From the IMG/VR virus record IMGVR_UViG_3300028571_002018: a DNA stretch of 20,000 nucleotides; one strand, 5' to 3'. The notes under the pieces were generated by a model that was given only the letters and a program-made list of their open reading frames with translations, made no database searches and had not been told where the DNA came from. This stretch comes from an uncultured virus (IMG/VR IMGVR_UViG_3300028571_002018) (lineage: Duplodnaviria > Heunggongvirae > Uroviricota > Caudoviricetes). Shown here in pieces: positions 2,882 to 17,286 of this stretch. The position numbers and the translations under genes were made by a program. How positions within the stretch are numbered: the stretch's first letter is position 1; every line of letters begins with the position of its first letter.

Positions 2882-3148
2882 CAAATAGTGGTGGTGGGGC
2901 CGCACCCCCTGTCAAACCCAGCGAACTGGGCTCCTTTTTGCTGCCAATGGCTGCATCGAATAGCTGCGGAAACCTCCAACATAACTGGCAGTCTATCAGA
3001 GGCCGATGGTCGACCCCATCGAGAACTGTGGACGCCAGTTCAAATCCGTATTTCGCACTTGAACCGCCGTCCGCATTTTTTCACCTCTTGGCTTTGGGCT
3101 GAAAACACGCCTTCATGGAGTACCACCAACTCATTCGGAAGGAAACCC

Positions 3149-3361
3149 GTGGAAACCAAACATCTGGGACAAAAACAGCTCGCAGCCCGTTGGAGCATCA
3201 GCGAGGCCAGTCTTGAGCGCTGGCGCAGCGAGGGCATTGGCCCGAAGTTCCTAAAACTCCCCGGCCGCGTCCTCTACCGCCAGGTCGACATCGAAGCCTT
3301 CGAAGAGTCTTGCCTGTCAACATCGACAAAGGCCCTGGCTGGGCCGGTTAGATTCGAATGA
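3149..3361 (+). CDS. Small AlpA/excisionase-like HTH DNA-binding protein (70 aa)
   Basis: GTG at 3149 follows an AAGGA RBS; HLGQKQLAARWSISEASLERWRSEGIGPKFLKLPGRVLYRQVDIEAFE. Confidence 0.8.
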   Translation: METKHLGQKQLAARWSISEASLERWRSEGIGPKFLKLPGRVLYRQVDIEAFEESCLSTSTKALAGPVRFE

Positions 3362-3554: not shown

Positions 3555-4400
3555 TCAGATGACCCCGACAGCTTGAAACTTACCGCGCAGTCTTTTCACC
3601 ACATCGACCAGCACAATTGGATCAAGCTGGTTCTTTTTCAAAAATGCCTTCCACTGAGTTTGCTTGGTTACATCTCCTGCAAAGGCGTCTGTAAAGCCGA
3701 CGGGCACCGTGATCGGCATGGGCATTTTGCGGCGCTCAAAAGTTGCTTCAATGGCACGGCGCACTTCGGATGGGTCAAGCGTGGTGTCATCCAGTAGCAC
3801 CCACAAATCGAAGTAATCCTTCATTCGTGTGTTGGCCAGCCCCAGCAGGCACACGGCATGGAATTTCTCGGCGACGACCGTGTATTTCGGATATGCCCGC
3901 AGCTGCGGTGCCGGAAGATCTTCCAACAGTACCGGATAACTGATCGCCTGTGGTGCCGGAGTCACCGCGTCACCGAACCCGATGTCAACTTGCAGAGCAA
4001 TGCGCGCACCATCTAGCTTTGCCTGAATGTCGATCCGCACTCCGCCATAGCCAGCCTCCTTGCGGATGACTGAACCCTTGACTGAATCGGGGTCAAACAC
4101 CACCCCGTCTTCCGATGGGGTCAGGCAAATTTGGCGGAAAGTCTTGACTGCTGTTTCAACGTCGTCCGGGCCAAAGCCCAAAAGATCAGCATCACGGGTG
4201 GGCCGGTGCGCGACGTCATACCAAAGCGTAAACAGCAGCGCCCCTTTGAGCAGAAAATTTGAGGCGTGCTCGGAAACGGACAGTCGGTACAGCAGACGCT
4301 CCAGACCGTAATGCGTGAGCGTCAAATTGAAGTCTTGCTTGGTCGCATCAGCGTGTTGCTTCAAACGCGCCCGGACCGATGCAGCCAGATTTCGACTCAT
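3555..4400 (-). CDS. abiEii: AbiEii/AbiGii-family nucleotidyltransferase toxin (type IV TA)
   Basis: Motifs FLLKGALL, RPTRDADL, VDIGFGD, VVAEKFHA and TRMKDYFDL; ATGA overlap with the upstream antitoxin. Confidence 0.9.
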   Translation of the reverse strand: MSRNLAASVRARLKQHADATKQDFNLTLTHYGLERLLYRLSVSEHASNFLLKGALLFTLWYDVAHRPTRDADLLGFGPDDVETAVKTFRQICLTPSEDGVVFDPDSVKGSVIRKEAGYGGVRIDIQAKLDGARIALQVDIGFGDAVTPAPQAISYPVLLEDLPAPQLRAYPKYTVVAEKFHAVCLLGLANTRMKDYFDLWVLLDDTTLDPSEVRRAIEATFERRKMPMPITVPVGFTDAFAGDVTKQTQWKAFLKKNQLDPIVLVDVVKRLRGKFQAVGVI

Positions 4401-5014
4401 GTTGTCACGCTTTCCAGGTATGGGCGCATGACATTGGCCACGCGGTCAACCGTCGCGAAATGCCAGATTTCGTCCATTGTGAATTTTCGTTGCGCCCAGC
4501 CATCGCGTAGGGCTTCCAGGGCAACGTCCAGCCCAATTTTGTTGCGGTATTTGAAGCAGTCCGCCACTGTCTTGGCAGCGTTAAACACCCGCACGCTCAC
4601 GCCATCAACCTGCAGTTGTTCAATGCCATCTGTGAAAGCCACCCCTGACATGCGCACGGCGCGAATTTTGGGCTGGTCAAGCCTTGGAATGGGTGCCCGA
4701 TGTTCAATGGCAAGCCAGACCTCAAAAGGTGCCTGTGTCCCGATGCCATGCACCCGCAGTGCCGAAAGCAGGCAAACAACTCCGTGCGGTACACGCAGCG
4801 CCACTTCCGCCAGGGACCGGTGCTCGCTGATTGCCTGCCCTGGCAGGCCATAAACTCCTCTGGCAACTCTTTCGAGCTTCCCTGCGGCGACCAGTCGGCT
4901 GAGCACTATGGTTGGCAGTTGCTGCTGCGCTAGGTCCCGAGCACGCAGCAGCGGTCTTGCCCTGGCAAGTTCAAGGACAGCCTGCTCATGCGTCGGATTG
5001 GGCCGAAAATTCAT
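4397..5014 (-). CDS. abiEi: AbiEi-family antitoxin / transcriptional regulator (type IV TA)
   Basis: N-terminal wHTH (GKLERVARGVY), VVCLLSALRVHG and AKTVADCFKYRNKIGLDVALEAL. ATG 5014 is preferred over the track's TTG at 5032, which lies inside the promoter. Confidence 0.88.
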   Translation of the reverse strand: MNFRPNPTHEQAVLELARARPLLRARDLAQQQLPTIVLSRLVAAGKLERVARGVYGLPGQAISEHRSLAEVALRVPHGVVCLLSALRVHGIGTQAPFEVWLAIEHRAPIPRLDQPKIRAVRMSGVAFTDGIEQLQVDGVSVRVFNAAKTVADCFKYRNKIGLDVALEALRDGWAQRKFTMDEIWHFATVDRVANVMRPYLESVTT

Positions 5015-5020
5015 AGTGCA

Positions 5021-5075
5021 AGTATGTTGCAATATCTATGCATTTGTCAATAAATTACACGCTATAGCAACAAAC
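5021..5075 (-). promoter_or_regulatory. Sigma70-like abiE promoter overlapped by an inverted-repeat operator
   Basis: On the minus strand, TTGACA (5050-5045), an 18-nt spacer, then CATACT (5026-5021). The inverted repeat is GTATGTTGCAATA (5022-5034) / TATAGCAACAAAC (5063-5075), an 11/13 match. Confidence 0.7.
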
Positions 5076-5133
5076 ATGCTTACTTGATCATCCATTCTTC
5101 CTGACTTTGTACAAACGTCTGACTTGCGGTGAC

Positions 5134-6078
5134 TCAAGATAGTGAGGCATCGACTTCGTTCAGCAATTCACGTGTCAGTCGGTATATGCCCGGTCGTTTG
5201 CTTTCTCGCGGGCCAGCGACATTCAGGGTCTTGATTTCGTGCTGACGCAGCCATTCGAGAACGCACTTCGCCGATTCCCCGCTAACGCCCTGATCGGCCT
5301 GAACCACAAGGAACGGCTTGTTCAATCGCTCAGCGAAGACCTGGGTGGCAAGTGTCCCCCCATCCATTTCACCGCAATTAACAATCAGCGTGCCATCACT
5401 CTCCTCAACATTACGGCGTGTACGCTGCCGGTAGCCACCGTGATCCAACTCAACCAGCTGATACTTCATGGGAATCTTGCGGTCCTCGGCTTCGCGACCC
5501 TGAGGTGCCCATCCACCGTGCGTGTAACCGTGCTCAATGGCAAAATCCAACGCGCCACGATCCGCCCCAGTCTGGCCGCCTGAAATAATATGCTGGCAAA
5601 AGCGAACTGCCTCGAAGTTTGATCCGCGAAACGTCGGCAAATGCATCAACGCGCCATCAGCAAGGACTTCTGTGCGCTCGGCGAGTCGATGGTTAGGGTC
5701 TTCACAGGGTTTGTCGTAAACGACGCGATAGTCTTCACCAACCTCATCCTTCAGCAAACGCGCCAGGTGGACACCACGCGCATGAAACTCAAGCCAATCC
5801 CAATCACTTGCATCGAAATCTTCAGAGTAAAACCGCGTGCGGTCAAAGGCGACGGCCCAGTCTGCAAACTTTCTCCAAAGAACTTCCGACATTGGACATG
5901 ATTCATCCCAGCCGGTGCCATCGCATATATTGCCGCCGATGCCCAATTCATTAGGTGCATCGACAAGCCACAAGAATGGCGCATTGCCATAGTCCACCAT
6001 CACGGTGAGGACGGGAATAAAGGGCAAATTTTCAGCATTCATGATGGCGGGCTTTACGTTTTGGAGATACCAATTCAC
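5134..6078 (-). CDS. Unknown N-terminal domain fused to cpYpsA SLOG ('putative molybdenum carrier') domain
   Basis: The C-terminal half has IISGGQTGADRGALD, GGWAPQGREAED, YRQRTRRNVEESDGTL, GGTLAT and LNVAGPRESKRPGIY. The start is uncertain (GTG 6078 or ATG 6042). Confidence 0.85.
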   Translation of the reverse strand: MNWYLQNVKPAIMNAENLPFIPVLTVMVDYGNAPFLWLVDAPNELGIGGNICDGTGWDESCPMSEVLWRKFADWAVAFDRTRFYSEDFDASDWDWLEFHARGVHLARLLKDEVGEDYRVVYDKPCEDPNHRLAERTEVLADGALMHLPTFRGSNFEAVRFCQHIISGGQTGADRGALDFAIEHGYTHGGWAPQGREAEDRKIPMKYQLVELDHGGYRQRTRRNVEESDGTLIVNCGEMDGGTLATQVFAERLNKPFLVVQADQGVSGESAKCVLEWLRQHEIKTLNVAGPRESKRPGIYRLTRELLNEVDASLS

Positions 6079-6114
6079 TTTCTAATTGCAGTCTCCTCTT
6101 TGAGCTAGAAGTGA

Positions 6115-6933
6115 TCACCGAATGATCTCGATGATTTCCCATGCATCTTTGTTGTAGATAGGTGACGGGTGGTACTTAAATTTCACAGCAGTCTTACGGC
6201 CAATGTCTTCCCGCAATGCTCGACAAAATGAACGTCCACTTTGCAGATACGCTAGGTAAGCAGGAATCTCCGACTCACTATTTGGAAACACACCGATCGA
6301 CTTCCACGCCAAATACGCTTCCATTAGTTCGGCTTCAAGATTGAGGTCTTCCATTTGGTATCCAACCCCGCCAACAGTGACAAAGCCATGGTACGCATCA
6401 ACCACCACTTGACAAGCCAAAATTCGCCGATCAGGCTCCATCGTATGCGCAGAAAACGGTCGTGTTTCCAGTGCCAATACCTGTTCGAGTTCGACACCAT
6501 GAACTTGGAACTCACACGGAATCGGTGCTGATATGGCCAGCGATTTGATTTGCTTGATGCCCGAGTCAATTGCATCTATGTATTGCTCAGGCTCAAAAAC
6601 GAAGTGCTCAAACGTCGTTACACCATGCTCCCACAGGTCAGGGGTGTCCTCATTGACTGAAAGCGGATCTGGACTTTTCCACGTGATCTCTTTATGAGAG
6701 TGTCCGACTTCAATGCCTTGAAAGATACCTGCGCACCCGGGTTGACCGCATCCGCAGGTGAAAATGTCAAGCTCGCCTGACCACTGACAACTTTTGACAA
6801 GACTGGTTAAGTCCAATGGATGCTCTGGGTGAAACTCGACACCATTGATTTTTAGTCCGTAATCAACAACAGACCCCGAGTACCCTGGTGAATCGACCAT
6901 GACTACTTCTAACTCGATGGTGTCGTACTTCAT
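6115..6933 (-). CDS. Hypothetical protein with CxCGxxGC motif (272 aa)
   Basis: Long ORF co-oriented with its neighbours and closely spaced. IFTCGCGQPGCAG is a putative metal-binding motif. Confidence 0.75.
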   Translation of the reverse strand: MKYDTIELEVVMVDSPGYSGSVVDYGLKINGVEFHPEHPLDLTSLVKSCQWSGELDIFTCGCGQPGCAGIFQGIEVGHSHKEITWKSPDPLSVNEDTPDLWEHGVTTFEHFVFEPEQYIDAIDSGIKQIKSLAISAPIPCEFQVHGVELEQVLALETRPFSAHTMEPDRRILACQVVVDAYHGFVTVGGVGYQMEDLNLEAELMEAYLAWKSIGVFPNSESEIPAYLAYLQSGRSFCRALREDIGRKTAVKFKYHPSPIYNKDAWEIIEIIR

Positions 6934-6952
6934 ATGAGTCCTGAATGATCAA

Positions 6953-7726
6953 TCACATCCGATAACGCATCGGAGCAGATTGCCGCTCTTTAATCATCTT
7001 TGAAATTAGCTGTCCGGTTACATCATCCTTTTTGATGTCCATCGATGAAATCAATAATTCAGCCTCGTCAAATCGTCCTTGCTCCCTAAAAAGATCGACT
7101 AGATCGATGACATACCCCTTGCGAGAAGTTTCCCAGCGGTCAAATAGAACTTTGCTGAGACGCTGCATGTTTTGAAGTTGCACATCCGTTGGATCGAAGG
7201 CCGGATAAGTGAACGGACTGTTTTGTGGACGTCTGTATTCCGGTGGTTTTCGACGAAGGAACTTGTCCCACCAGGTTCTGCGATCTGGATTTGCTACAAC
7301 CCATGCCGTTTTGGTTGCGGCCTCTTCAGCATCCCTGTGCTGACGGTATCTATCACGGTACTCGTGATTGAGATGTCTCCAGTAACCCAGCCTAGCCGCG
7401 ACCTCCATGTCCTCACTGCTCGCCTTTGAGATGCACTCGGGCAAAAGATCGTCGGGCACATGATCCATAAATGGCAGTTCATTGGACTCATCGTCGTCCG
7501 CACTGGGTGCTGCTGGTCTCTCGATTGAGACCATGTCCTTTATCAGGACAAACCGCCCACATTTGCACCGTCGCAAGCCTTCGTCGTTCGGCATGAGTGA
7601 CCACTCGCGCCAACCATCCGTCCAGTATTCAAATGCCGAAAAATTCATCGACACGTATCTTGGGAAGGCATATTGCGCACCACAGCACGGCGCTGCCATG
7701 ATTCGAACACCACGAACGATGGTCAT
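6953..7726 (-). CDS. Hypothetical protein with N-terminal Cys pairs and C-terminal TPR-like helix (DUF2225-like architecture)
   Basis: APCCGA ... RRCKCG is a candidate zinc ribbon and LVDLFREQGRFDEAELL is TPR-like. The family assignment is tentative. Confidence 0.7.
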   Translation of the reverse strand: MTIVRGVRIMAAPCCGAQYAFPRYVSMNFSAFEYWTDGWREWSLMPNDEGLRRCKCGRFVLIKDMVSIERPAAPSADDDESNELPFMDHVPDDLLPECISKASSEDMEVAARLGYWRHLNHEYRDRYRQHRDAEEAATKTAWVVANPDRRTWWDKFLRRKPPEYRRPQNSPFTYPAFDPTDVQLQNMQRLSKVLFDRWETSRKGYVIDLVDLFREQGRFDEAELLISSMDIKKDDVTGQLISKMIKERQSAPMRYRM

Positions 7727-7842
7727 GCTGCATTCTGCTTTCTCAACTCATGCCAGCCGTGAACGGATGTTTGACAACGTGCATTGGTCAAGGTTGACCA
7801 TGCCGTATCGATGTGATGTTCGATCATCCTATTGAGTTGCCG

Positions 7843-8376
7843 TCAGAGCAGTTCTGACTGTCTGGCAAACAGACCATCGAAGGTTGCTTCAAGTCCAGGG
7901 TGAATGCCACGTACACCAGCCACCACGCGAGCCGCCCAATCAAAATAAGCTTTCTTTCGCTCCGCAGTCCAATCCGCCGGTGGCGATGCCAGGATGTCTC
8001 TCAAATTACAAATTTTGTCAGCCAGCTTGACCAATTTGGCTTCGGAGGACATAAGAGGCGCGTGCCGCACCTGTTCCTCTTTTCGAACTGCCTTTTCCAA
8101 GCTTTTGTCATCGGTCACTTCCAGCACGATGCTCGTGACCTTGTCTCCAAAAATATCTGCCAACTCTTTTGCGGTCGTATCGGTGTCTTCAACGGTGTCG
8201 TGCAGCATCGCTGCACAGATCACATCCGGGTTTTCGACACCGCCCTCAACGGCAAGAACGCTGGCCAACGCCAACGGGTGGTTGATGTAGGGCGAGGCAT
8301 CGACATCTTTGCGACGCTGATTTTTGTGCTTCTCGGCTGCAAATTGGGCGGCTTTCACGATTGCTGCAACTGTCAT
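7843..8376 (-). CDS. Mesh1-like HD-domain small alarmone hydrolase ((p)ppGpp-type 3'-pyrophosphohydrolase)
   Basis: Motifs FAAEKHKNQRRK, PYINHP, AAMLHDTVEDT, VLEVTDDK and VKLADKICNLRD. The ATG at 8376 follows an AAAGGGAA RBS-like sequence. Confidence 0.9.
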   Translation of the reverse strand: MTVAAIVKAAQFAAEKHKNQRRKDVDASPYINHPLALASVLAVEGGVENPDVICAAMLHDTVEDTDTTAKELADIFGDKVTSIVLEVTDDKSLEKAVRKEEQVRHAPLMSSEAKLVKLADKICNLRDILASPPADWTAERKKAYFDWAARVVAGVRGIHPGLEATFDGLFARQSELL

Positions 8377-8459
8377 AATTTTCCCTTTCTGTATTTCATC
8401 CCTTGACACGCACCGCCGAAATCACGGTGTTCGATTTTTCATTCCGACATATTTCAGTC

Positions 8460-8641
8460 GGACAGCCCTGCGGATTCGAACCGCAGTCAGTTGAAAGATT
8501 GGCCTCCTTTTCAGCACCGGTTGCCTGGTTTCCCAACCATCCAGCGGCTTCGTAGATAAATGACAAAGGTGCCCAACCATCCCCTTGCCCTCTCAAACGT
8601 AGCGAGCACTTTTCACCATGCTTCCAATACATCAGGCTGTC
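8460..8641 (-). ncRNA. tRNA-like RNA with ~114-nt insertion replacing the anticodon loop
   Basis: Acceptor stem GACAGCC/GGCTGTC, D-arm ATGT-ATTGGAA-GCAT, stem TGAAA/TTTCA and T-arm CTGCGG-TTCGAAT-CCGCAG. No CCA is encoded. Confidence 0.7.
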
Positions 8642-8645
8642 TACT

Positions 8646-9842
8646 TCAACCTTTGACGCAGACGACTTGCTTGAGCGTGTGCAGAATCTCCGTCAGGTCA
8701 GCCTGATTGGCCATGACCTGATCGATGTCTTTGTAGGCACCCGGAATCTCGTCAATCACATCCTTGTCCTTGCGGCAGATCACACCTTGGGTTAGCGCCA
8801 CCATGTCAGCTACCGTAAATTGCTTCTCGGCGGCGGTTCGACTCATCTTGCGTCCGGCACCATGGGCGCTGGAACAAAAGCTCTCAGGGTTACCAAGGCC
8901 GCGCACAATAAAACTGCGCGCACCCATGCTGCCTGGAACAATTCCCAGGTCACCGGCACGGGCACGAATGGCACCCTTGCGGGTCACCCAGACGTTTTCG
9001 CCGTAGTGGTGCTCTTGCGCAACATAGTTGTGGTGGCAGTTCACAGCCTCGGTCGTGACAGTAAAGGGGGGCAGATGGCGCTGTAAGGCAGCCAGCACCA
9101 GTTCTAACATCGACGTGCGGTTCTGCATCGCGTAATCCTGCGCCCAGTGAACCGCTTCCACATAATCTGCAAAGTGTTCAGAGCCTTCAGGGAAATAGGC
9201 CAGATCGCGGTCGGGCAGCTGGATCATCCAGCGTTCCATGTCCTTGCGCGCCAAAGCAATGAAGTAACTGGCAATCGCGTTACCAATGCCACGGCTGCCC
9301 GAATGCAACATAACCCACACCTGGTTAGTCTCATCTAGGCAGACTTCAATGAAGTGGTTTCCACCACCGAGCGTGCCCATCTGGTTGGCCCACTTGGAGA
9401 ACTTACCAAACGCTTTGAGCAGTTCGGGGTGGCGATCAGTCAACGATTTAAGGCCTGGCTCAAACGGTTTGGAGGCATCGACCAGTACCCGCTCATCGCT
9501 ATGCTGGGCACGACCGACCGGCACATCTCGACTGATCTGGTCAAAGACTTTTTGCAGCGCTTTTTCGTCGATTTCATTGGCCGTCAGCGACAAACGTGCC
9601 GCCACCATGCCACAACCCAGGTCAACACCGACCGCAGCTGGAATGATGGCTTTATGGGTGGCAATCACCGACCCGATGGTGGCACCAATACCCAAATGGA
9701 CATCGGGCATCGCCGCCACATGATGGTGAATGAATGGCAAACTTGCAATGTTGGTCAGTTGCTCAATTGAGCGCTCGTCCACATCGTCAGTCCATATCTT
9801 GACCGGAACTCGCTGGTCCGCAATAACTTTTTTTATGGGCAT
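8646..9842 (-). CDS. rtcB: RtcB family RNA 2',3'-cyclic phosphate/5'-OH ligase
   Basis: Motifs MPDVHLGIGATIG, AVGVDLGCGM, GTLGGGNHFIE, MLHSGSRG, NCHHNY, TRKGA, IVPGSMG, SSAHGAGR and DEIPGAYKDI. Confidence 0.97.
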   Translation of the reverse strand: MPIKKVIADQRVPVKIWTDDVDERSIEQLTNIASLPFIHHHVAAMPDVHLGIGATIGSVIATHKAIIPAAVGVDLGCGMVAARLSLTANEIDEKALQKVFDQISRDVPVGRAQHSDERVLVDASKPFEPGLKSLTDRHPELLKAFGKFSKWANQMGTLGGGNHFIEVCLDETNQVWVMLHSGSRGIGNAIASYFIALARKDMERWMIQLPDRDLAYFPEGSEHFADYVEAVHWAQDYAMQNRTSMLELVLAALQRHLPPFTVTTEAVNCHHNYVAQEHHYGENVWVTRKGAIRARAGDLGIVPGSMGARSFIVRGLGNPESFCSSAHGAGRKMSRTAAEKQFTVADMVALTQGVICRKDKDVIDEIPGAYKDIDQVMANQADLTEILHTLKQVVCVKG

Positions 9843-9860
9843 AAATTTTTCCCTCGCTTT

Positions 9861-11105
9861 TCATTGGTCCAGCAATGGCAGCTGTTCTGCCTTCGCTGCT
9901 GTGAATTCGGCAAACGGCTTGTCCCAATCTTCATAGGGAAATGCGTCGCGAACTTTTTTCTGAAAATCGCCACTGGCCAAAGTTTCGTAGGTCACACCCT
10001 TGCGAACGCACTCCAGCTTCATATCTCCAACGACACTCTCTGCAGTTGGAAAAACCTCCTCAAGACGCTTGGTCAAATAGAGCGTCACATGATCGACCGT
10101 TACTTTTCCAGTAACTTGATCAATCAGGTCTTGCGGCGGCTTCTTCTTGAGTGCGGGAGTCAGTCCCTCCACTAATTTGTTCCTCGACGAAGCAATTTCC
10201 TTCGTAAGTCGCTCGACCACAGATTCACGAAACTTTTCAATGTCGGCCCGAATCGCTTCAATCAGCGAATCGACCTCCTTGCGCTTGCTGCGAAGAGTTA
10301 TGGCACCAATGTCACCAATCGGACGGACAAATCGATCACGCAACTTGCGCACTCTGACTTCGACGGCATCAGCATCCTGACCAACTTTGCTTTTTCCATC
10401 CAACAAGTTGAAACTTGTGCGCAATCGCTTTGACGTGGCTTCGTCGCGCAAGGCCAGGATCAAGTCTTGCGGTAATTTGACGGTGTGGCGGGTAATTTGC
10501 AGGCCAGTCAGCCGCAGCTCAATGAACTCGACGTATGCGTTGAATACTGTCAGAGTGCGTGTAAGGTCAAATCGTTGCGGAGGATTCTTCACCATCTCAG
10601 CTTCCACAGCCTTCACATGGGCATCGGTTAACGGCTCCTTACCGATTTGTGGAGGGGTTGGCTTTATCGTTTCTTCGCTCGGACTACTTTTCACGTAGTC
10701 AGGGGCGACCGTGGCGAGCACACCATCAACTTGCTCTCGCGAAAGAATTAAGGCATTTGGACCACGCGGCAGATTTGGGTCTTCCACCATCATGGCAGGA
10801 AGCATGAAAACCATCGCCAGATCATCCACCACCAGAAGACTCATGCGCAAGCCCTGCTCGACTCGCACATCGACATCGTGCTCCAACAACATCGGCATGG
10901 GGTCAGTCTGGCCATACCCCAAACGCAGGGCGTTGGCACTGCCGTCAAGTACGACCCTAACGCGGCTTTTCACGAGACGTTTTCGAACTTCAATGAGCGC
11001 CCCTGCCACCGTGTCAGTTACCCCTGGACCAGCATAGACAGCACGGACTTTTGCCCCACGAATCATCTCTGCCACATCGTCATCTTTGATTACTTTAAGT
11101 TCCAA
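9861..11105 (-). CDS. Hypothetical protein: degenerate PLD-like N-terminal domain + helical C-terminal region (~414 aa)
   Basis: The pattern IRGAKVRAVYAGPG ... RVRVVLD ... GLRMSLLVVDD resembles a PLD fold with the HxK motif replaced. TTG at 11105 has GGAGG 8 nt upstream (the track start is 11120). The gene ends 18 nt before rtcB. Confidence 0.7.
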   Translation of the reverse strand: MELKVIKDDDVAEMIRGAKVRAVYAGPGVTDTVAGALIEVRKRLVKSRVRVVLDGSANALRLGYGQTDPMPMLLEHDVDVRVEQGLRMSLLVVDDLAMVFMLPAMMVEDPNLPRGPNALILSREQVDGVLATVAPDYVKSSPSEETIKPTPPQIGKEPLTDAHVKAVEAEMVKNPPQRFDLTRTLTVFNAYVEFIELRLTGLQITRHTVKLPQDLILALRDEATSKRLRTSFNLLDGKSKVGQDADAVEVRVRKLRDRFVRPIGDIGAITLRSKRKEVDSLIEAIRADIEKFRESVVERLTKEIASSRNKLVEGLTPALKKKPPQDLIDQVTGKVTVDHVTLYLTKRLEEVFPTAESVVGDMKLECVRKGVTYETLASGDFQKKVRDAFPYEDWDKPFAEFTAAKAEQLPLLDQ

Positions 11106-11468
11106 GTTGTGTCCCTCCAAACGCTGATCTAGTAAAAGTCACCTTGGCGTTGAGGGAATCCAGATTTGGACTTTGTGTACCAAAGCGGCCGGAATGATCA
11201 GCCGGCATAGTTGCAACGTCGTTGCAAATAAATGGCAAACTAGTGTCTTCGGCAATTCGAAACCACGAGCGCAATTCGCGATCGTCCATCCAAGCACTGG
11301 CGAGACAGCCTTGATTTGACTTCTGCTGAAGTAGTTTTACACCCATGGCGGAATCCCATTGGTGAGTCCGTTCGGCAAAAACCTAGGCATAGACGAATTT
11401 TTGTTGAAGCGCATCGAAATTCATTTCAGTTTGTTCACCAACTGTAGGACTTTCAACGGGCGTAGACG

Positions 11469-11484
11469 AAAATTCCCCTACTTT
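11469..11484. promoter_or_regulatory. Recurrent motif AAAATTCCCCTACTTT, copy 1
   Basis: Identical 16-mer at 16839-16854 and an 11-bp core at 13951-13961. Confidence 0.5.
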
Positions 11485-11498
11485 ATTGAGATCACACC

Positions 11499-12182
11499 AT
11501 GTGGCCATTTTTTAGTAAACAAAAGCAATCGTCGGGTATCACTGAGGTTCATACTGAATCTCGTACCCGACCGATGAAATTTTCACAACTCCTAGATGGC
11601 ATGGGAGACTTTAGTGATCTGGGCAACCACGACACAGCGATGAAGTTTTGGCTGCCCGAGCCCGCCCTTGAAGCTCTCAAGGAGATAAGCAATTTGAATG
11701 GCGACTCTGTTAGTGAAGCTTTGCGCCAGTTTTTTGCTCATCATTGCTACGGCATCTATGCGTTTCAGATGATGAACGCAAAAATTCCAGGGATTTTCAA
11801 AGACCCTGGACCTATTATGTTTTCAAGGGGTCCCAGCAATGATCCTGTAGGTAAAAAGCGTGTTCACACCTATTGGGTTCCCGAGTTGGGTAAAAACGTT
11901 ATGCCGATCAAGGTGTGGGTGCCTGCCCGAATCCGAAATGATCTTCAATTGCTCGCAACCCACGTTGAGTTGAATTTGTCTCAATATGCCAGAGAGATTG
12001 TCATTTCTCGACTACTCGGGCATGGAACACTTCCTTACCGGCCAGAAATGCTGGCGGCCAATCCATTACCTGCGGCACACGACTGGTGCGAGGGAAAAGA
12101 CGTACCGTTACGCCAATTATGTGATGGTGAAAAAGTTCTCCACGATGAAGTGAAGACAGTTTCCGAATGGGTCGATGCGTGA
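11499..12182 (+). CDS. Putative tandem ribbon-helix-helix DNA-binding protein (227 aa)
   Basis: Two RHH-like units: MKFWLPEPALEALKEISNLNGDSVSEALRQFF and IKVWVPARIRNDLQLLATHVELNLSQYAREIV. Confidence 0.65.
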   Translation: MWPFFSKQKQSSGITEVHTESRTRPMKFSQLLDGMGDFSDLGNHDTAMKFWLPEPALEALKEISNLNGDSVSEALRQFFAHHCYGIYAFQMMNAKIPGIFKDPGPIMFSRGPSNDPVGKKRVHTYWVPELGKNVMPIKVWVPARIRNDLQLLATHVELNLSQYAREIVISRLLGHGTLPYRPEMLAANPLPAAHDWCEGKDVPLRQLCDGEKVLHDEVKTVSEWVDA

Positions 12183-12205
12183 TCTTGATCTGGCATTGAT
12201 AACGT

Positions 12206-13933
12206 TTACAGTTCAAACAAATCTGGTTCAGCGTCGACAACGGGCATTCGTTTTTCGCCCAAGTGCTCAGAATATTTTCTGTTGACTTCTGCTACAGCCT
12301 GCTTGGCATACTTCCGAACTGCCAATTGCACTGGCTCGTTGCAAGGACCTGCAATCTCGTCCAGCGACCAGTGTCGGACACGCCGGACAGCAGAGGCCAA
12401 CGCTATCCTTCGGCCTGTGCTCTTATCGCGCAGGCTAATAAGCAACTCATTGCCCTGACGGCATCGGGAAATGTAACTATCCGCGCAATTGTGCAATGCC
12501 GTCGCCTCGGTAATCAATGCGTTTGGGGAAAGTAGTGGCACAACCATTAGCTTGCCCGATGTATCCCATTGCGCCGATTGAACCCACAAGGCCCAGGCTG
12601 GAGCGTCCTGCGTATCCTCTGCTTGTTCCAATTTTTCGTGAAATTGCACCGCCTCACGCAACCAAGAGCAACCGCGGCGTCGCTGATTCTTGTCTGGGCG
12701 AAAGGCGTACTTTCTAACCAGCCATGCCCAGCGTGGAACGCTATCAAAGAGTTCCTGATATGCCACGGCGTCCCCGCGCCTATCAGAAGCCTCGTTGCAG
12801 ACAATTTGCCAAAACCAACCCGGAACACCTGCACTGGACGTTTCAAATGTGTCGGGCCGACCCGCTGAATCGTGCAACAAACGTATAAAACCACGCGGAG
12901 CCAATGTTGGCCACCGTGATGCATCCAGAGCCTTCAGGCTCAAAATGAGCGATTCCCATGGAGAACGGTTAAGTTGGCTTGGCAGCAAGCGGTTCATTCC
13001 CTTCTCGGCCAATACACGCCAAGCCTTTTGCGACAGACCCGATGCCAGAATGTCATTCATCATCGCTGGAATGGCATCTGCCGTTTGGGAAAGATCGTTA
13101 GGTCTAGCGTACGAAAGCCACGCGGTCAGCGCAACCAACAGTCGTGGGTTTTCTCGATCCATGGTTTGAAACACGCGAAGGTTTCTCCACACCAAGTTCA
13201 AATGCTGTGCCGTGAGGCTTGCCTTACCTGGATAGAGCCGAGCACGCAATGCGGTATCCACGAGATCTGAACCTATGTACAAAGTCAACATGGCGGCCAA
13301 GCGATGCCGAACTGCCGCCATTGCGCCACATCTTTTCAATCGCGCGCCAACCAAATCGATAACGTCATTGAGCGCCGAATCCATCGCGTCAAAGCTCGTA
13401 AAGAGTTGACCTTGATCCTGTTCACCAAGCTTTTTGGTGTAAGAAAACCAGCCTGGCCGGGCTGCGATATAGACAAGCCAAGTCGACTTGCAAAGTGGAT
13501 TGAGTAGATCAACATTGTCCAAGCGCGAATCGACACAGTGCTTCCATGGCGGACTTTGTTTGCTGGCCTTTTCTCGACGTGAAATGGGAGATGGTTCAAC
13601 CCAGACTGCCTGCTCTGACCGATCAATTACATAGTCCAACGCGCCAAAGATTCGAATCCGCAATCGACTGCCAACCGAAGACATAACGCGTATGGGGTCG
13701 GCATATAAGTGTTGCATCACATGTCCCAGCAATGCCGAAGCGCCTAAGGAAACGGTGTCCTCATACACATCCCCAGTCAAAACTGGATGTGCGAGGTGGT
13801 CACTGGTGCATTCCTTAGCCGATCGCATTCTCTGGCGAACTGCCGCATTTATCAACCGCGCCCCAATGCCGTTGTCTATCAAATATTGGATCGGTACAAG
13901 GTGTGCTTCTCTCATGTACGGCAGGTTAGCCAA
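12206..13933 (-). CDS. PcfJ domain-containing protein (~575 aa)
   Basis: The C-terminal VVPLLSPNALITEATALHNCADSY...LISLRD...EIAGPCNEP matches the PcfJ-like E...HNC..SY / G..N pattern. The start codon is uncertain. Confidence 0.8.
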   Translation of the reverse strand: MANLPYMREAHLVPIQYLIDNGIGARLINAAVRQRMRSAKECTSDHLAHPVLTGDVYEDTVSLGASALLGHVMQHLYADPIRVMSSVGSRLRIRIFGALDYVIDRSEQAVWVEPSPISRREKASKQSPPWKHCVDSRLDNVDLLNPLCKSTWLVYIAARPGWFSYTKKLGEQDQGQLFTSFDAMDSALNDVIDLVGARLKRCGAMAAVRHRLAAMLTLYIGSDLVDTALRARLYPGKASLTAQHLNLVWRNLRVFQTMDRENPRLLVALTAWLSYARPNDLSQTADAIPAMMNDILASGLSQKAWRVLAEKGMNRLLPSQLNRSPWESLILSLKALDASRWPTLAPRGFIRLLHDSAGRPDTFETSSAGVPGWFWQIVCNEASDRRGDAVAYQELFDSVPRWAWLVRKYAFRPDKNQRRRGCSWLREAVQFHEKLEQAEDTQDAPAWALWVQSAQWDTSGKLMVVPLLSPNALITEATALHNCADSYISRCRQGNELLISLRDKSTGRRIALASAVRRVRHWSLDEIAGPCNEPVQLAVRKYAKQAVAEVNRKYSEHLGEKRMPVVDAEPDLFEL

Positions 13934-13934
13934 C

Positions 13935-13962
13935 GAGGGGAATCATTACCAAAATTCCCCTC
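13935..13962. promoter_or_regulatory. Inverted repeat containing recurrent motif core (copy 2)
   Basis: GAGGGGAAT-N10-ATTCCCCTC; CCAAAATTCCCCT (13949-13961) also occurs at 16837-16849. Confidence 0.5.
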
Positions 13963-14034
13963 AAATTTCGCAAACCTTCGAACCGCTAAAACCTCCCACA
14001 TCGCCATGAAGTTCAATACACTACCGATGTGCCA

Positions 14035-14103
14035 GGGCCGGTGGTCATAGAGACGTGCAGTGAGTAGCTGCAAGATGTCTGGTTCAAATCCGGGCCTGAC
14101 CCT
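14035..14103 (+). ncRNA. Compact pseudo-tRNA / tRNA-like element (nominal anticodon AGT)
   Basis: Acceptor stem GGGCCGG/CTGACCC (6/7 pairs), D-arm GTC-ATAGA-GAC, anticodon arm TGCAG-TGAGTAG-CTGCA and T-arm GTCTGG-TTCAAAT-CCGGGC. It has G33, no D-loop GG and no CCA. Confidence 0.65.
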
Positions 14104-14174
14104 GGCGCACCGTCGTAGAAGGTGATGTTGACGGCTGACCGATAGATGATCTGGCTATTTGATGTCGTTTCGCG

Positions 14175-15050
14175 TTAACCGATATACACCCGCACACAAG
14201 CCCGCATCGTGTTGTCGTGCAAGTCTAGTACCGGTCGAATCCCATGCATATCATCCCGCTGATAACCACCAGCCAGATTCCATGCAACCGGGACTTGCAT
14301 CGCTTTACATTCTTGAAACACCAGTTCGTCGCGCCGAAGCATTTGCTCCGTTGTCATGACACCCCCCAGCGGATCATTGATATGGGGATCGGCACCCGCC
14401 TGGTAGAGGATGAGATCACATCCCGACATGCCTTTAAGCACACTGGGCAAATGCCTGAAAAGTTCCTCCGACTTTTCAACCGTGGTGTAGGGCTGCTCCC
14501 CAAACGTGTAGTGTTGCAGCCAATTTCCCAGCTCAAGCAATTCAATGAGCGAAGCAGTCCCATCCCCGAAGTGCACATCGCAGTCCACAATGCCCACCCG
14601 ATCCACAAGGCCCGCACTTTTCAAGGCTCGTGCTGCGATGACCAAACCATTAAAAGTACAGAATCCTGCACCCTTTGCATAGCGAGCATGGTGGAACCCT
14701 GCGACAGGTGCCACAGCTACTTTGCCATTGGCAACAGCCTCGCGTCCGGCATCAATCATTGCACCGACGGTGTACCTGCAGGTTTCAGCTATCGCCACAT
14801 CTTTGTTCATAAAGCCATTGGCTTGCTGGCCTGAGAAAATCTTCCTCACGTAGTCCATCGAGTGGGCCAGGCACAGCACTTCGTCGTCGGCTGGACAAAC
14901 GTCGTGTACCGAGATTGGTGCGCCCATGGCCAGCCAAGAGTGCACAACTGGTTTGGGCTTTGCTGCGCTGGGCGAAAATCCACCGCTGTCTGCGACCATC
15001 TGATCACAGTAGAAGACCGGCAGCGTTGACAGCGTTTCGTTAGTTGTCAT
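14175..15050 (-). CDS. Zn-dependent histone deacetylase family protein (HDAC/AcuC/AphA)
   Basis: Motifs GFHHA, GFCTFN, VDCDVHFGDGT, YQAGADPHINDPLG and LAGGY. The ATG at 15050 overlaps the end of the Sir2 gene. Confidence 0.92.
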   Translation of the reverse strand: MTTNETLSTLPVFYCDQMVADSGGFSPSAAKPKPVVHSWLAMGAPISVHDVCPADDEVLCLAHSMDYVRKIFSGQQANGFMNKDVAIAETCRYTVGAMIDAGREAVANGKVAVAPVAGFHHARYAKGAGFCTFNGLVIAARALKSAGLVDRVGIVDCDVHFGDGTASLIELLELGNWLQHYTFGEQPYTTVEKSEELFRHLPSVLKGMSGCDLILYQAGADPHINDPLGGVMTTEQMLRRDELVFQECKAMQVPVAWNLAGGYQRDDMHGIRPVLDLHDNTMRACVRVYIG

Positions 15051-15912
15051 GACCACGCCCCTTCACTTCATCCAGTGCGGATTGAATGCCCAGCAAGCCC
15101 TCGAGCGCGCTCTTAGGAATGCTGACGTCAGCACTCCCTGGCACCTGACTTTCTTGGGGATTAATACGAATCAAGCGCCCGTCGTATCGGCTGATGATGC
15201 TGTGGCTGAAATGGCGGACCGATGGTATCGCGGTTCCAGCCCCCAACTCAACGATTACCACTCGGGCTCGCGCTGATTCAACCGTGTAAAGCCACTGGTC
15301 TTCCCGGCGGGACTGAGCCCGTGTTCTGGATTCCAGCCAATTCCAATCTCCAAACATCAATATGTTCGGACGGGCAAGACTGCCGCAGGCTGAGCAGGTC
15401 GGAGGTCCATTGGTGAGGTGACAAGCATCTTCGTTGATGTGGGGCATAAATCCGTCTGCACTCCACACCGTGCGCTCGCATCTCTCCTTGCACTGGAAGT
15501 GGTGGATCGAGCCATGGCATTCATGAATCTGGTCGTCTGCAAACCCGGCCTTTTGAAACTGTCCATCCACATTGCTCGTGAATATCCAGCTACCAAACAT
15601 CATCTCCTCGCTCCACTTGCGAAGAATTTGAAACCCTTCATGCGGCACGGTCTTGCGGTACAAGTCCAATCGGTGACCGTAGAAGCCCCAAGCGAGCATT
15701 GGGTCCTTCTCGAATGTCGCCGGGTTCGCCACTTGAGTAAAGTCCAACTTGGCTCGTGCCAATGCGGGGTAGGCATTCCAGAAGCCCTCACGCCCCCGAA
15801 AATCAGGCAAGCCGGAGTCCACGCCCATGCCCGCTCCCGCCCCGATAACCAAGGCATCTGCACCAGCGATGAGCTCAGCAGCCCTGTAAAACGATGTTGT
15901 CAAGTCGGTCAT
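15040..15912 (-). CDS. Sir2 family NAD-dependent deacylase
   Basis: Motifs GAGAGMGVDSGLPDFRG, FTSNVDGQF, ECHGS, CxxxC...CxxC zinc site, RPNILMFGD, ELGAG and RINP. Confidence 0.92.
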   Translation of the reverse strand: MTDLTTSFYRAAELIAGADALVIGAGAGMGVDSGLPDFRGREGFWNAYPALARAKLDFTQVANPATFEKDPMLAWGFYGHRLDLYRKTVPHEGFQILRKWSEEMMFGSWIFTSNVDGQFQKAGFADDQIHECHGSIHHFQCKERCERTVWSADGFMPHINEDACHLTNGPPTCSACGSLARPNILMFGDWNWLESRTRAQSRREDQWLYTVESARARVVIVELGAGTAIPSVRHFSHSIISRYDGRLIRINPQESQVPGSADVSIPKSALEGLLGIQSALDEVKGRGHDN

Positions 15913-16784
15913 TTTTCAAAAACCTCGTTGGCATCTGGTGAAACGACCACAAGGTCGATGATTTTTGCGCAATCTGGGAACACCGCTTGCAGCCTCTCAC
16001 CAAGGTGATCCCACAGAGCGACACACTCATGGACGCACTGACGATGCAACGTTATGAGGTGGCTTTCGTCCAGCGCGTTCAACCACTGTGCGGCACGAGC
16101 AATCTGGGCACTGCCACGCGGTGTCTGATCCAAGCTCGGCCATTCGCCAAGGGGCGGGATTTCGTCCCGATACACAGCCCAAATTGCCCGAAGCCGCATT
16201 CTGTCGTTCAACAGTGGACTTTCCAGATCCATCAAGTTGAGAAACGTAAGCATCTGCCCCAGGGCAGCGAGCATGTCATAGGTGTCCCAAATGGGAAGTT
16301 CCCCTTCCTCCACTGCGTAGCCCTCCTGCGCCGGGTGCACCCCAGCATCCCACCACAAAACCATGAGTTTGGTGGTACCCGTGGCCTTTTCTCGAAGGAG
16401 TTTTTGCGTGCTGACGGCCGACTGAAGTGCCTCACTTAACAGCGGATCGGACCGAACCAAAATGAAGTCCCAAAGCGACTTCTTGTCCTCCAGACTCCAC
16501 TGTGCAGCAAAGTCTTCGAACTGGTTCAATCGGAATCCGCTGCGCACAGGAACCAATCCTGGCGGTCTTGGCAGAGAACCGTCCAGGAACGCGTTGCTTA
16601 CCTGCTCCTCTGATGCCTGCTCTTCTGGTACGAGCCAGAGGACCTCTGCAAATCGGTGCAAATCCTTTTTGTGCTGAATGCCCAAAACTTTATGCACATT
16701 TATGACGTTGGCCGCGTCAGACAACAGATCGTGCAAGGGCTGAAAGAGAATTGCGACGTGACGGCCGCTCGGGAGCATAGGCAT
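15909..16784 (-). CDS. Hypothetical protein (291 aa)
   Basis: Long ORF with a GGA RBS-like sequence and an ATGA overlap with the Sir2 start. No family recognised. Confidence 0.7.
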   Translation of the reverse strand: MPMLPSGRHVAILFQPLHDLLSDAANVINVHKVLGIQHKKDLHRFAEVLWLVPEEQASEEQVSNAFLDGSLPRPPGLVPVRSGFRLNQFEDFAAQWSLEDKKSLWDFILVRSDPLLSEALQSAVSTQKLLREKATGTTKLMVLWWDAGVHPAQEGYAVEEGELPIWDTYDMLAALGQMLTFLNLMDLESPLLNDRMRLRAIWAVYRDEIPPLGEWPSLDQTPRGSAQIARAAQWLNALDESHLITLHRQCVHECVALWDHLGERLQAVFPDCAKIIDLVVVSPDANEVFEK

Positions 16785-16838
16785 TGGAGTTCCTTGGGAC
16801 TTGAACCCAGAGCTTATGTAAGCGTCTGCCTTGTCGCC

Positions 16839-16854
16839 AAAATTCCCCTACTTT
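16839..16854. promoter_or_regulatory. Recurrent motif AAAATTCCCCTACTTT, copy 3
   Basis: Identical to 11469-11484; lies in a divergent intergenic region. Confidence 0.5.
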
Positions 16855-16979
16855 TTAAGATTGAAGTCACTCTTGCAGTGGCGATGGACCCATCCAACCT
16901 ATTTTTTTCGGCCACTACCAAATCACCGGAAGTTACTGCCAAAATAGGCCAATTTTGACAAATCTGGATGTTTCTGCTC

Positions 16980-17210
16980 ATGGCTAAGCCCACATCGGAC
17001 ATTCTTACTATCACAGAAGTTGCAGAGTATTTGAAGGTCGCAGAACGGACGCTTTACCGGTTAGCCGCAGCAAGAAAGGTCCCCGCCTTCAAGGTTGGTG
17101 GTACTTGGCGGTTTTCTCGCGCGGATATTGATAAGTGGATCAAACAACAGTCCCTGGTTGCCCAGGAAAACGATATCCACGTCGTAACAAAAGGGAGTGG
17201 ACTGAAATGA
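16980..17210 (+). CDS. Excisionase-family (HTH_17) DNA-binding protein
   Basis: ILTITEVAEYLKVAERTLYRLAAARKVPAFKVGGTWRFSRADIDKWI; alternative start at 16968. Confidence 0.88.
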   Translation: MAKPTSDILTITEVAEYLKVAERTLYRLAAARKVPAFKVGGTWRFSRADIDKWIKQQSLVAQENDIHVVTKGSGLK

Positions 17211-17286
17211 ATAAATTCTGGAAAGATGGCAACACAGACCATCATCAAGTCTTCGCACATGTTGAAACTGAGTCGGGAAGCTGCGA

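Follow-up and report, generated by a model that had tools for sequence, protein, structure and literature searches.

A patchwork of RNA-repair and chemical-tag-removing genes with two tRNA-shaped RNA genes in an uncultured virus record

Genes and boundaries of the locus

The window, by which we mean the entire 20,000-nt stretch of IMG/VR record IMGVR_UViG_3300028571_002018 that was analysed, carries a cargo between positions 5134 and 16784 in which 10 of 11 intact genes lie on the minus strand and several stops and starts overlap, an operon-like layout that argues against accretion. The gene identities given in a preliminary description of the region are established here directly with Pfam, PADLOC and NCBIfam, and the PcfJ-like gene at 12206-13933, overlooked there, is added to them; activities are predicted from these families.

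The operon leader is an unnamed helical protein of 291 aa (15909..16784; 75 homologues; 29 loci compared; structure model with pLDDT 87.8), for which a family or fold match was not found. It is followed by a sirtuin (Sir2; 15040..15912) recognised by Pfam and scoring under all NCBIfam deacylase cut-offs, a Zn-dependent HDAC-family deacylase (14175..15056; PF00850, E 4e-31) and a 575-aa PcfJ-domain protein (12206..13933; PF14284 in 39 of 50 family members) whose single-sequence structure model was unusable (pLDDT 38.5). The one plus-strand cargo gene (11499..12182) encodes a 227-aa protein with a weak ribbon-helix-helix hint (RHH_1, E 0.022, below cut-off). Beyond it, on the minus strand, lies the decayed 5' end of a second rtcB (11188..11319; 39% over 44 aa, RtcB residues 8-51, E 5e-7), with nhmmer matches to rtcB starts in other loci. 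Because this decayed start is present, we conclude that the region has been rearranged.

The remaining minus-strand genes begin with a 419-aa protein of a widespread family (9861..11120; 1048 representatives at E<=0.001), for which a candidate PLD-like N-terminus (Atlas feature match to PLDc_2 at 0.92) is a lead only, with no Pfam support in 21 homologues. Full-length RtcB RNA ligase (8646..9842; PF01139, E 6e-131) is 93-96% identical to RtcBs in Rhodoferax-like genomes, and no rtcA or rtcR was found beside it in the window by Pfam or NCBIfam, so that an RtcR-regulated rtcBA operon was rejected. The next protein (7843..8409; HD_4) is a Mesh1-type small alarmone hydrolase with an intact HD motif; it matches human MESH1 (3nr1) with a phmmer E of 1.5e-48, against 1e-13 to 1e-16 for Rel/SAH structures, and, judged from sequence, is a true Mesh1, with a stand-alone HD domain closest to MESH1 and an intact metal motif. 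It is followed by a 257-aa protein of a large unnamed family (6953..7726; 416 clusters at E<=0.001), whose gene follows mesh1 in L162 too, a 272-aa protein without a Pfam match (6115..6933), partial homologues of which immediately precede rtcB in L006, L035 and L079, and an unknown N-terminal domain fused to a cpYpsA SLOG domain (5134..6078; PF12694, E 1.8e-56), the whole fusion being 71-72% identical in L166 and L170.

Downstream on the minus strand lies an AbiEi-AbiEii pair (3555..5032; PADLOC E 4e-105 and 9e-85), with AbiEii at 3555-4400 and AbiEi at 4397-5032, adjacent as in AbiE type IV toxin-antitoxin systems; we regard AbiEii not as a repair factor but as the toxic partner in a standard type IV system. 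An HTH_17 excisionase-like gene (3155..3361, plus strand) converges on the cargo as in L003. On the other side, a MAD1-like HTH protein and a PglW kinase starting at 17287 (16968..20000, plus strand; PADLOC and NCBIfam) begin a BREX-type system, in divergent orientation to the cargo. AbiE and BREX type 2 PglW are clear members by profile; elsewhere they are unlinked to the rest, AbiEii and PglW each occurring in 1 of 80 RtcB loci and AbiE being near RtcB in 1-2 of 80. The PADLOC check proposed earlier returned models for AbiE, MAD1 and PglW only: none of the 11 proteins between 5134 and 16784 matched PADLOC 2.0 (2023 library) at E<=0.01.

The far end of the window (51..2585, plus strand) holds the terminal module of a neighbouring integrative element, with DUF2924, a large serine recombinase (350-1738) and two phrog_14161 proteins; G001 and virus record G002 carry this module at 95-99% identity but have none of the cargo. 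At 2886..2925 (minus strand) we observed an att-like scar, a degenerate copy of a tmRNA 3' end that marks the end of the recombinase element; at this position the tmRNA gene that follows in G001 (L082) and L012 is intact. The region is flanked by a recombinase module and pglW as previously described, but the module is severed from the cargo by the scar, belonging to a neighbouring tmRNA-targeting element that ends near 2900. The host locus of the tandem island array is most likely a tmRNA locus.

Two tRNA-shaped RNA genes without a usable anticodon

E1 (8461..8641, read 8641-8461 on the minus strand; 181 nt), identified by a structural descriptor and folding, begins 4 nt past the rtcB stop. 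It has a 7-bp acceptor (7/7 Watson-Crick pairs), U8, a 4-bp D stem with A14, G18G19 and A21, a 6-bp T stem and a canonical T loop, the acceptor and T pairs having probabilities of 0.93-1.0, and a helix at the anticodon-stem position closes an insert of ~115 nt. E2 (14035..14102, plus strand; 68 nt), found in the same way, is a cloverleaf antisense to the operon and opposite in strand to all its neighbours, with a 3-bp D stem and 5-nt loop, a 6-bp T stem, an acceptor of 6/7 pairs with one C-A mismatch, and ends sealed by a further helix; folding of 14021-14120 gave z-scores of -3.6 on the plus and -2.6 on the minus strand. The descriptor (T loop, 6-bp T stem, 7-bp acceptor, U8 and D stem), which was composed after the elements had been seen, finds exactly these two elements in the window, compared with a mean of 0.003 matches per window, and none with two, in 300 block-wise dinucleotide shuffles.

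As described earlier, both elements are real and encode no CCA after the stem, but beyond the 7+6 frame they are unlike each other. The 13-bp arm is likewise present, a branch as in tRNA-Sec or G-1 tRNA-His. It reads equally as 7+6 and as 6/6 plus G-1:C73, the latter being the reading we prefer, in which E1 is one base short of CCA (CGA).

E1 and E2 are tRNA-shaped RNA genes unable to read codons; any transcription or role of the RNAs is conjectural. ARAGORN and Rfam found nothing in the window, and no Rfam score in three intergenic stretches came near gathering, so neither element is recognised as a canonical tRNA (RF00005). A 7-nt anticodon loop with U33 is lacking in E1 (115-nt insert) and E2 (G at 33), whereas the elbow residues (U8, A14, G18G19 and T loop) are all found in E1; E2 has U8 and the T loop without the D-loop GG. 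YrlA Y RNA was rejected, with no RF02553 match at E<=10 in the window versus 71 bits for L002, and E1 and E2 are in normal, not permuted, tRNA order; no Ro60/TROVE gene was found among the 20 window proteins. A tmRNA was rejected as well: E1 has C3-G against the required G3-U70, ARAGORN reported none, and only the T arm matched (7.6 bits). Allo-tRNAs share the shifted acceptor/T junction, and inactive irregular tRNAs have been reported beside TA systems (PMC5389517). However, these have an 8/4 or 9/3 branch with a longer acceptor and shorter T stem, whereas in E1 and E2 it is the T stem, at 6 bp, that is lengthened; allo-tRNA/tRNA-Sec, requiring an 8/4, 9/3 or 8/5 branch and an anticodon, was rejected for a branch of 7/6 or 6/6 without a usable anticodon.

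T4 rnaC/rnaD and anticodon-less phage tRNA mimics, like E1, join the upper half of a tRNA to a long middle part that does not decode; according to PMC3014915, rnaC/rnaD-type RNAs have no known function. Unlike these, E1 is found outside a tRNA array, within an operon of a bacterial island, and rnaC, with its 5-bp T stem, shares only T-loop letters with it. Membership of the T4 rnaC/rnaD group was rejected, the similarity being confined to 11 nt of the T loop and the E1 model giving 7.7 bits. The same model gave 25 bits for phage RNA L120 and 20 bits for L122, both preselected by a T-arm pattern (2 of 5 matches); they are candidates for an uncatalogued class of anticodon-less phage mimics with a 6-bp T stem and a variable middle.

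These relationships bear on whether E1, E2 and E3 are mere remnants of tRNA genes, devoid of function, that repeated insertion of islands or the decay of a tRNA array left behind, which we consider possible but rather doubtful. E3 (16785..16848, read 16848-16785 on the minus strand) is a weak tRNA relic that overlaps the ribosome-binding site, with a 4-bp T stem, a D arm that we take to be Leu-type and a clearly broken acceptor; it was not found upstream of 291-aa homologues with upstream DNA. Relics would also be consistent with the missing CCA, the mismatch in E2, the weak folding of the E1 insert (z -1.1), the resemblance of its D arm to that of a phage tRNA-Arg, the tRNA arrays carried by close RtcB relatives, a possible source, and the failure to find full-length relatives of E1 or E2 in the places searched. 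Against decay, E1 retains every elbow residue and 13 stacked pairs; integration scars retain the 3' end only, whereas the E1 ends pair across 181 nt, and E1 and E2 have the 6-bp T stem in common. L120 and L122 share the frame, D-loop letters and CCA position of E1 with different acceptor pairs, which may point to a class.

Recurrence of the gene families across loci

We compared 80 loci anchored on RtcB, 29 on the leader gene and 17 on HDAC, many of them on short contigs. Pairs of these gene families turn up together much more often than the background would predict, in RNA-repair operons and in defence islands, where recurring neighbours are tRNA arrays, YrlA, Ro60, RtcA/RtcR, KptA, Nudix and HAD repair genes, and R-M or BREX genes. 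For example, cpYpsA (11 occurrences in a single genus, in 8 of its 159 genomes) was seen near RtcB 6 times versus ~0.02 expected in 1.09 Mb of flank, a rough estimate as kin are not independent. Among the 80 RtcB loci, SLOG was found in 6, Mesh1 and Sir2 in 4 each, and HDAC, PcfJ and AbiEii in 1 each; RtcB was found in 0 of 29 leader-gene loci, only 5 of which had a 10-kb flank. The same set was found nowhere else: none of the 80, 29 and 17 loci had more than two core partners, within the limits of short contigs.

We therefore favour, with moderate confidence, the reading that the region is cargo accreted within a tandem array of islands, with genes drawn from a loose guild, rather than one conserved machine. 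This is because 65 of 80 RtcB loci have no core partner, 11 have one and 4 have two; because L079 repeats the layout, with the same divergent pglW (fragment 90% identical), cargo with rtcB and SLOG, and recombinase module, but with different other cargo genes; and because G412:C30 has guild genes in a different order (rtcA-rtcB-SPFH-rtcR, tRNA array, Sir2, HDAC, HAD repair domain and SLOG fusion). Arguing against accretion, the block is nearly unchanged in other metagenomes, where one contig covers 10427-17325 with 26 differences; a second covers 7163-8729 with 28 differences from the window.

The preliminary description had proposed a coordinated tRNA-centred kit. The pairwise recurrence upholds part of this idea, but the full set is in no other locus, and the neighbourhood check suggested with it came out against a conserved set. 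That the genes form one counter-toxin or anti-phage system, in which every enzyme undoes one type of attack on tRNA and the RNAs serve as decoys, appears very unlikely to us. The RNA-repair and defence theme of the neighbours and the operon-like layout are consistent with it, as are the closest RtcB relatives, which adjoin tRNA arrays and YrlA, and the proposal, in the accessible part of PMC7790460, that uncut YrlA is a possible anticodon nuclease inhibitor. However, E1 and E2 were absent from all homologous blocks scanned; in L003 rtcB and mesh1 adjoin without E1; E2 lies antisense to the operon; one of the genes, AbiEii, itself encodes a toxin; and aminoacyl-tRNA deacetylation by sirtuins/HDACs and tRNA-end repair by Mesh1 are putative only.

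A sub-block is more fixed than a loose guild predicts: five apparently common contigs (of equal size) hold 291-aa and PcfJ homologues. In 16 of 29 loci (~12 once obvious duplicates are merged) the leader gene adjoins Sir2 or HDAC, with Sir2 in 10, HDAC in 6 and SLOG in 5 of the 29; it adjoins type III R-M, Eco57I-type or BREX genes in L094, L092 and L110, and probably also travels with PcfJ, which adjoins the HDAC clade in 3 of 17 HDAC loci (L184, L188 and L189). Possibly, although we would not expect it, 291aa-Sir2-HDAC-PcfJ is its own undescribed defence-island module, an acylation switch on proteins, not tRNA, with PcfJ, presumably a GNAT fold, writing or sensing the acyl mark, HDAC and Sir2 erasing it, and the RNA-repair genes as a separate neighbour. 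These linkages and the neighbouring defence genes favour such a module, which is compatible with accreted cargo; against it, partners change from locus to locus, 11 of 17 HDAC loci have no core partner, PMC5512222 does not mention PcfJ, and the PcfJ profile matched no PDB sequence at E<=10.

Relation to known RNA-repair neighbourhoods and implications

In rsr-yrlBA-rtcBA RNA repair operons, which include Ro60 and YrlA (PMC4201824 and PMC7790460), RtcB adjoins a non-decoding tRNA mimic as in the window, and YrlA or Ro60 genes lie upstream of its closest RtcB relatives; the window differs in having no RtcA, RtcR or Ro60. Burroughs, Iyer and Aravind described RtcB and sirtuin/NAD-linked RNA-repair neighbourhoods (PMC6514570; PMC9503650, section 3.7.3), including accretion of accessory genes around RtcB (PMC6514570). 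In the portions available, these are, as here, sporadic and horizontally spread, gain accessory genes and place sirtuins beside RNA ligases; the relatives in our comparison adjoin KptA, Nudix, ARG, RlaP, HAD_SAK and VIT-vWA. The same portions include no Mesh1, HDAC, PcfJ, 291-aa protein or E1/E2, some of which their supplements and the 2016 survey may include. On our best reading, the accreted cargo derives from an RNA-repair and nucleotide clean-up guild that is loose and already known, with E1 and E2 added as orphan tRNA mimics.

Under the accreted-cargo reading, at least three blocks would have come together, namely 291aa-Sir2-HDAC-PcfJ, AbiE, and rtcB-mesh1-257aa along with the SLOG fusion. 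Bacteria may keep such guild genes beside their own defence systems for clean-up after conflict: RtcB would reseal RNA cut by metal-independent nucleases, Mesh1 would remove 3'-pyrophosphates from alarmones, and Sir2, HDAC and the SLOG fusion would handle or remove acyl and ADP-ribose products. E1 and E2 would be tRNA-derived, non-decoding elements that this lineage has acquired. E1 most likely shares a transcript with rtcB and mesh1, and its tRNA elbow may be a processing or stabilising handle, or a weak decoy. A bolder reading, which we regard as quite unlikely, is that E1 is a processed, nuclease-proof tRNA mimic, its anticodon replaced by a 115-nt domain, which together with RtcB and Mesh1 substitutes for the Ro60-Y RNA pair, that 291aa-Sir2-HDAC-PcfJ is the undescribed acylation switch, and that they jointly let the host survive collateral damage from its own BREX/AbiE or from phage tRNA-modifying toxins.

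The region, part of a bacterial genomic island, brings together as a patchwork genes for RNA repair and for the removal of chemical tags; such genes are often neighbours, but no fixed set of them was found. Should it be accreted cargo and nothing more, it would be an ordinary case of a type of neighbourhood already known. If the bolder joint reading is true, it would represent a bacterial-island use of a mainly phage class of anticodon-less RNAs. The compact operon of RtcB, a true Mesh1 by sequence and a tRNA mimic, without Ro60, is a simple construct with which to test decoy, processing handle and relic, and the 291-aa family, with its steady tie to deacylases within defence islands, is a candidate in its own right for a defence-associated module not yet described.

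Composition and setting of the cargo

The ORF map and family scans bore out the gene identities proposed in the preliminary description for the cargo at 3555-16784, to which they added five unnamed proteins and one with a PcfJ domain. From 16784 down to 5134, minus-strand genes make up 10 of the 11, and the AbiE pair comes after them; the genes for a MAD1-like HTH protein and PglW diverge from the cargo start. The cargo has a G+C content of 47-56%, below the 63-65% of the recombinase module. By sequence the HD-domain protein is a true Mesh1, and close relatives of the RtcB come from Rhodoferax-like betaproteobacteria. Near-identical DNA is present in metagenomes of lakes, wastewater, sludge and sediment from 15 studies, with no RNA run among the sequencing runs listed as carrying it. 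Long contigs matching the window were found in the four metagenome runs examined. At 11319-11188, the decayed start of a second rtcB records a rearrangement. A promoter and terminator scan gave no excess over shuffled sequences.

The recombinase module is common to a comparison genome (G001) and a virus record (G002), and the cargo is absent from both. In G001 and in comparison locus L012, the end of this module runs directly into a tmRNA gene, and the window counterpart near 2886-2925 is a degenerate tmRNA 3' end in the same place. The module thus forms the end of a neighbouring element, with the cargo lying outside it in a tandem array. Locus L079 has the same layout, with a pglW fragment, a divergent cargo carrying rtcB and a SLOG gene, and a converging recombinase module, around a different cargo. 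The DUF2924/large serine recombinase element itself (350-2925 in the window; also in L082, L012 and L007) has an intact tmRNA at its end in two loci and appears to target the tmRNA 3' end; tRNA or tmRNA targeting is unusual for serine recombinases.

Two further features of the cargo were recorded. The 419-aa protein (9861-11120) belongs to a family of more than 1000 representatives that lacks a Pfam name and is PLD-like by language-model features alone. A short G-rich motif occurs at 16849, 13961 and 11479 (minus) and at L093:1158, where it precedes the 291-aa gene, its homologue in L093, the gene for PcfJ and the block with the decayed rtcB. The copy at 13961 makes a hairpin, and the motif may be an operator or promoter common to these sites, with the 227-aa protein as a possible ligand.

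Gene neighbourhoods of RtcB, HDAC and the 291-aa protein

Using the best 80 loci of 591 RtcB relatives (with at least 10 kb of flank in 58), we counted partners within 11 kb and discarded Mesh1 matches below 50% identity as RelA/SpoT-like. Among these 80 loci, the partners were SLOG (6), Mesh1 (4), Sir2 (4), the 272-aa protein (3), AbiEi (2), and AbiEii, HDAC, PcfJ and PglW (one each), and 65 were without any core partner. The background for the SLOG (cpYpsA) family, taken from 159 genomes of a single genus, was 11 matches spread over 8 genomes; by rough arithmetic on this one-genus background, ~0.02 SLOG genes would be predicted near RtcB versus the six seen, four of the six loci being of one island type. 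Gene pairing around RtcB is far above background. The preliminary description had proposed a single coordinated, tRNA-centred damage-reversal and defence kit with the RNAs as decoys; the recurring pairs agree with part of this proposal, but no RtcB locus among the best 80 of 591 held more than two core partners, and we consider a single kit improbable. We lean instead towards a cargo of independent clean-up enzymes gathered next to AbiE and BREX genes.

The nearest RtcB relatives adjoin tRNA arrays, and L002 also carries YrlA. One contig has the genes in another order, namely rtcA, rtcB, SPFH, rtcR, a tRNA array, Sir2, HDAC, HAD_SAK and the SLOG fusion. A Pfam scan of 85 selected neighbours from 19 RtcB loci identified RlaP, Ro60 vWA, VIT-vWA with MerR, KptA, ARG, Nudix, WYL and PcfJ. 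Separately, L073:7365-13364 is a single run of PcfJ, a tubulin/FtsZ-family gene, RtcB, a Sir2 fragment and KptA.

Anchoring on the HDAC clade (17 loci), we found PcfJ adjacent in three, SLOG near in three and RtcB in two, and 11 of the 17 were without a core partner by tblastn. With the 291-aa leader protein as anchor, 29 metagenome loci, several of them duplicates, had Sir2 in 10, HDAC in six, SLOG in five, and Mesh1 and PcfJ in one each; neither RtcB nor AbiE was present in these 29 loci, only five of which have 10 kb of flank. The long 291-aa loci adjoin R-M or BREX genes, and the recurrence of five contig sizes in both the 291-aa and PcfJ homologue sets suggests that these two genes are linked. 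These counts bear on the reading that the first block (291-aa protein, Sir2, HDAC, PcfJ) is an acylation-switch module of its own, which is compatible with independent clean-up enzymes and which we hold as possible but rather doubtful. The window sirtuin scores under every curated deacylase cut-off. For the 291-aa protein, Foldseek gave nothing at E<=0.001, the best Z being 5.9 across 66 residues, and there was no Atlas match; samples of 401 and 301 genomes, viral contigs and plasmids did not contain it. An assignment of the PcfJ protein as a GNAT was not confirmed.

Two tRNA-like elements in the cargo

ARAGORN and Rfam recognised no tRNA-like RNA in the window. A T-arm scan of the window returned three sites with 0.18 expected, and at least three sites occurred in one of 300 shuffles. 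The first element, E1 (8641-8461, minus), lies between rtcB and mesh1, and begins 4 nt past the rtcB stop. Its acceptor consists of seven Watson-Crick pairs, U8 is present, and the 4-bp D stem comes with A14, G18G19 and A21; a canonical T loop caps a 6-bp T stem, and at the anticodon-stem position a short helix closes ~115 nt. On folding, pairs of the acceptor and T stem reach probabilities of 0.93-1.0. The minimum-energy structure does not contain the D stem, and ~11 kcal/mol is needed to force the frame; folding of the insert is weak (z -1.1), and none of the insert's 11-mers is repeated elsewhere in the window. E2 (14035-14102, plus), between the PcfJ and HDAC genes, is a 68-nt cloverleaf antisense to the operon. 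Its acceptor contains one C-A mismatch, it lacks the D-loop GG and U33, and its ends are held in a longer helix. A descriptor for both, built on E1 and E2 themselves, matched 0.003 times per shuffled window. The weak third site, E3 (16848-16785), is a broken relic covering the first ribosome-binding site.

The atypical arm described earlier for both elements, a 7-bp acceptor on a 6-bp T stem, was seen again, but it can also be read as 6+6 plus a G-1:C73 pair. This register follows two phage RNAs (in L120 and L122) that have the same frame and CCA directly after position 73; both came from the search with the T-arm pattern, and one has U-U as its extra pair. In the 6+6 register, the E1 3' end is CGA, one base off CCA.

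Full-length relatives of E1 and E2 were sought by nhmmer over 80, 38, 53 and 17 loci, by blastn (E1 against plasmids and phages, E2 against plasmids), among the inspected matches of viral pattern scans, at the DNA level in 159 genomes from a single genus, where the 11 weak matches inspected were all short chance matches, and with single-sequence covariance models on 151 genomes plus 75 and 89 sources; none emerged. In L003, rtcB (87%) directly adjoins mesh1 (82%) without an RNA between them, and one metagenome contig weakly links part of sir2 to the beginning of E2. We regard the RNAs being functionless relics as a tentative, minority reading, which is likewise compatible with a cargo of independent clean-up enzymes.

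E1 and E2 had no Rfam match as tmRNA, YrlA or C4 antisense RNA. A DUF3800 gene in L008 prompted a comparison with DUF3800 RNA motifs, which gave no Rfam match either; published passages on these motifs do not call them tRNA-like. Comparison with parts of PMC5389517 set E1 and E2 apart from allo-tRNAs; the same passages record inactive irregular tRNAs next to toxin-antitoxin genes. T4 rnaC was rejected on direct comparison.

Several other tRNA-like RNAs were seen in the comparison loci. In phages, short RNAs that combine CCA with a 6-bp T stem lie at L120:358-430, L122:391-463 and L123 near 414; where the anticodon would be, the L120 and L122 RNAs carry a closed loop of 5 nt, and that in L123 is barely more than acceptor plus T arm. 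L225 near 400 has a phage Leu-framed RNA with an insert, and in L119 a T-arm RNA stands directly ahead of a tmRNA-like gene. L166 near 2968 (minus) has an unrecognised element with a CCA end, located in an rtcBA-tRNA array island within its HAD_SAK region. In L034 (6946), L072 (947) and L163 (9091), RNAs with a T arm that lie between rtcB and a Ro60-like gene fall under the YrlA gathering score and are likely divergent Y RNAs. Repeated degenerate elements near rtcB of a second RtcB clade (L143, L145, L146, L152, L153) share a motif upstream of the T arm.

Proposed workings of the cargo

Mesh1 removes 3'-pyrophosphates, and HDAC and sirtuins remove acyl groups. RtcB ligates 2',3'-cyclic or 3'-phosphate ends to 5'-OH, according to passages of PMC7790460, and some sirtuins have been proposed to act in RNA end clean-up (part of PMC9503650, section 3.7.3). 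As independent clean-up enzymes, each would limit damage by toxins or by the cell's own defences. The cargo resembles RtcB and NAD-linked repair neighbourhoods, which are described as sporadic and accreting in parts of PMC6514570 and PMC7824862; it is unlike the RtcR operon, and the window also lacks Ro60 and YrlA, in comparison with portions of PMC4201824. Literature searches for this gene combination listed no paper on it, and a 2016 RNA-repair survey and its supplements may already list parts of it.

Overall, the observation behind the preliminary description is partly confirmed and its interpretation finds partial support. E1 would probably be made on the rtcB-mesh1 transcript and, having no anticodon, could neither decode nor be cut as a tRNA; it may be a processing or stabilising handle, or a decoy, the latter like the role proposed for YrlA in passages of PMC7790460. 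E1 and the block of the 291-aa protein are the leads worth keeping.
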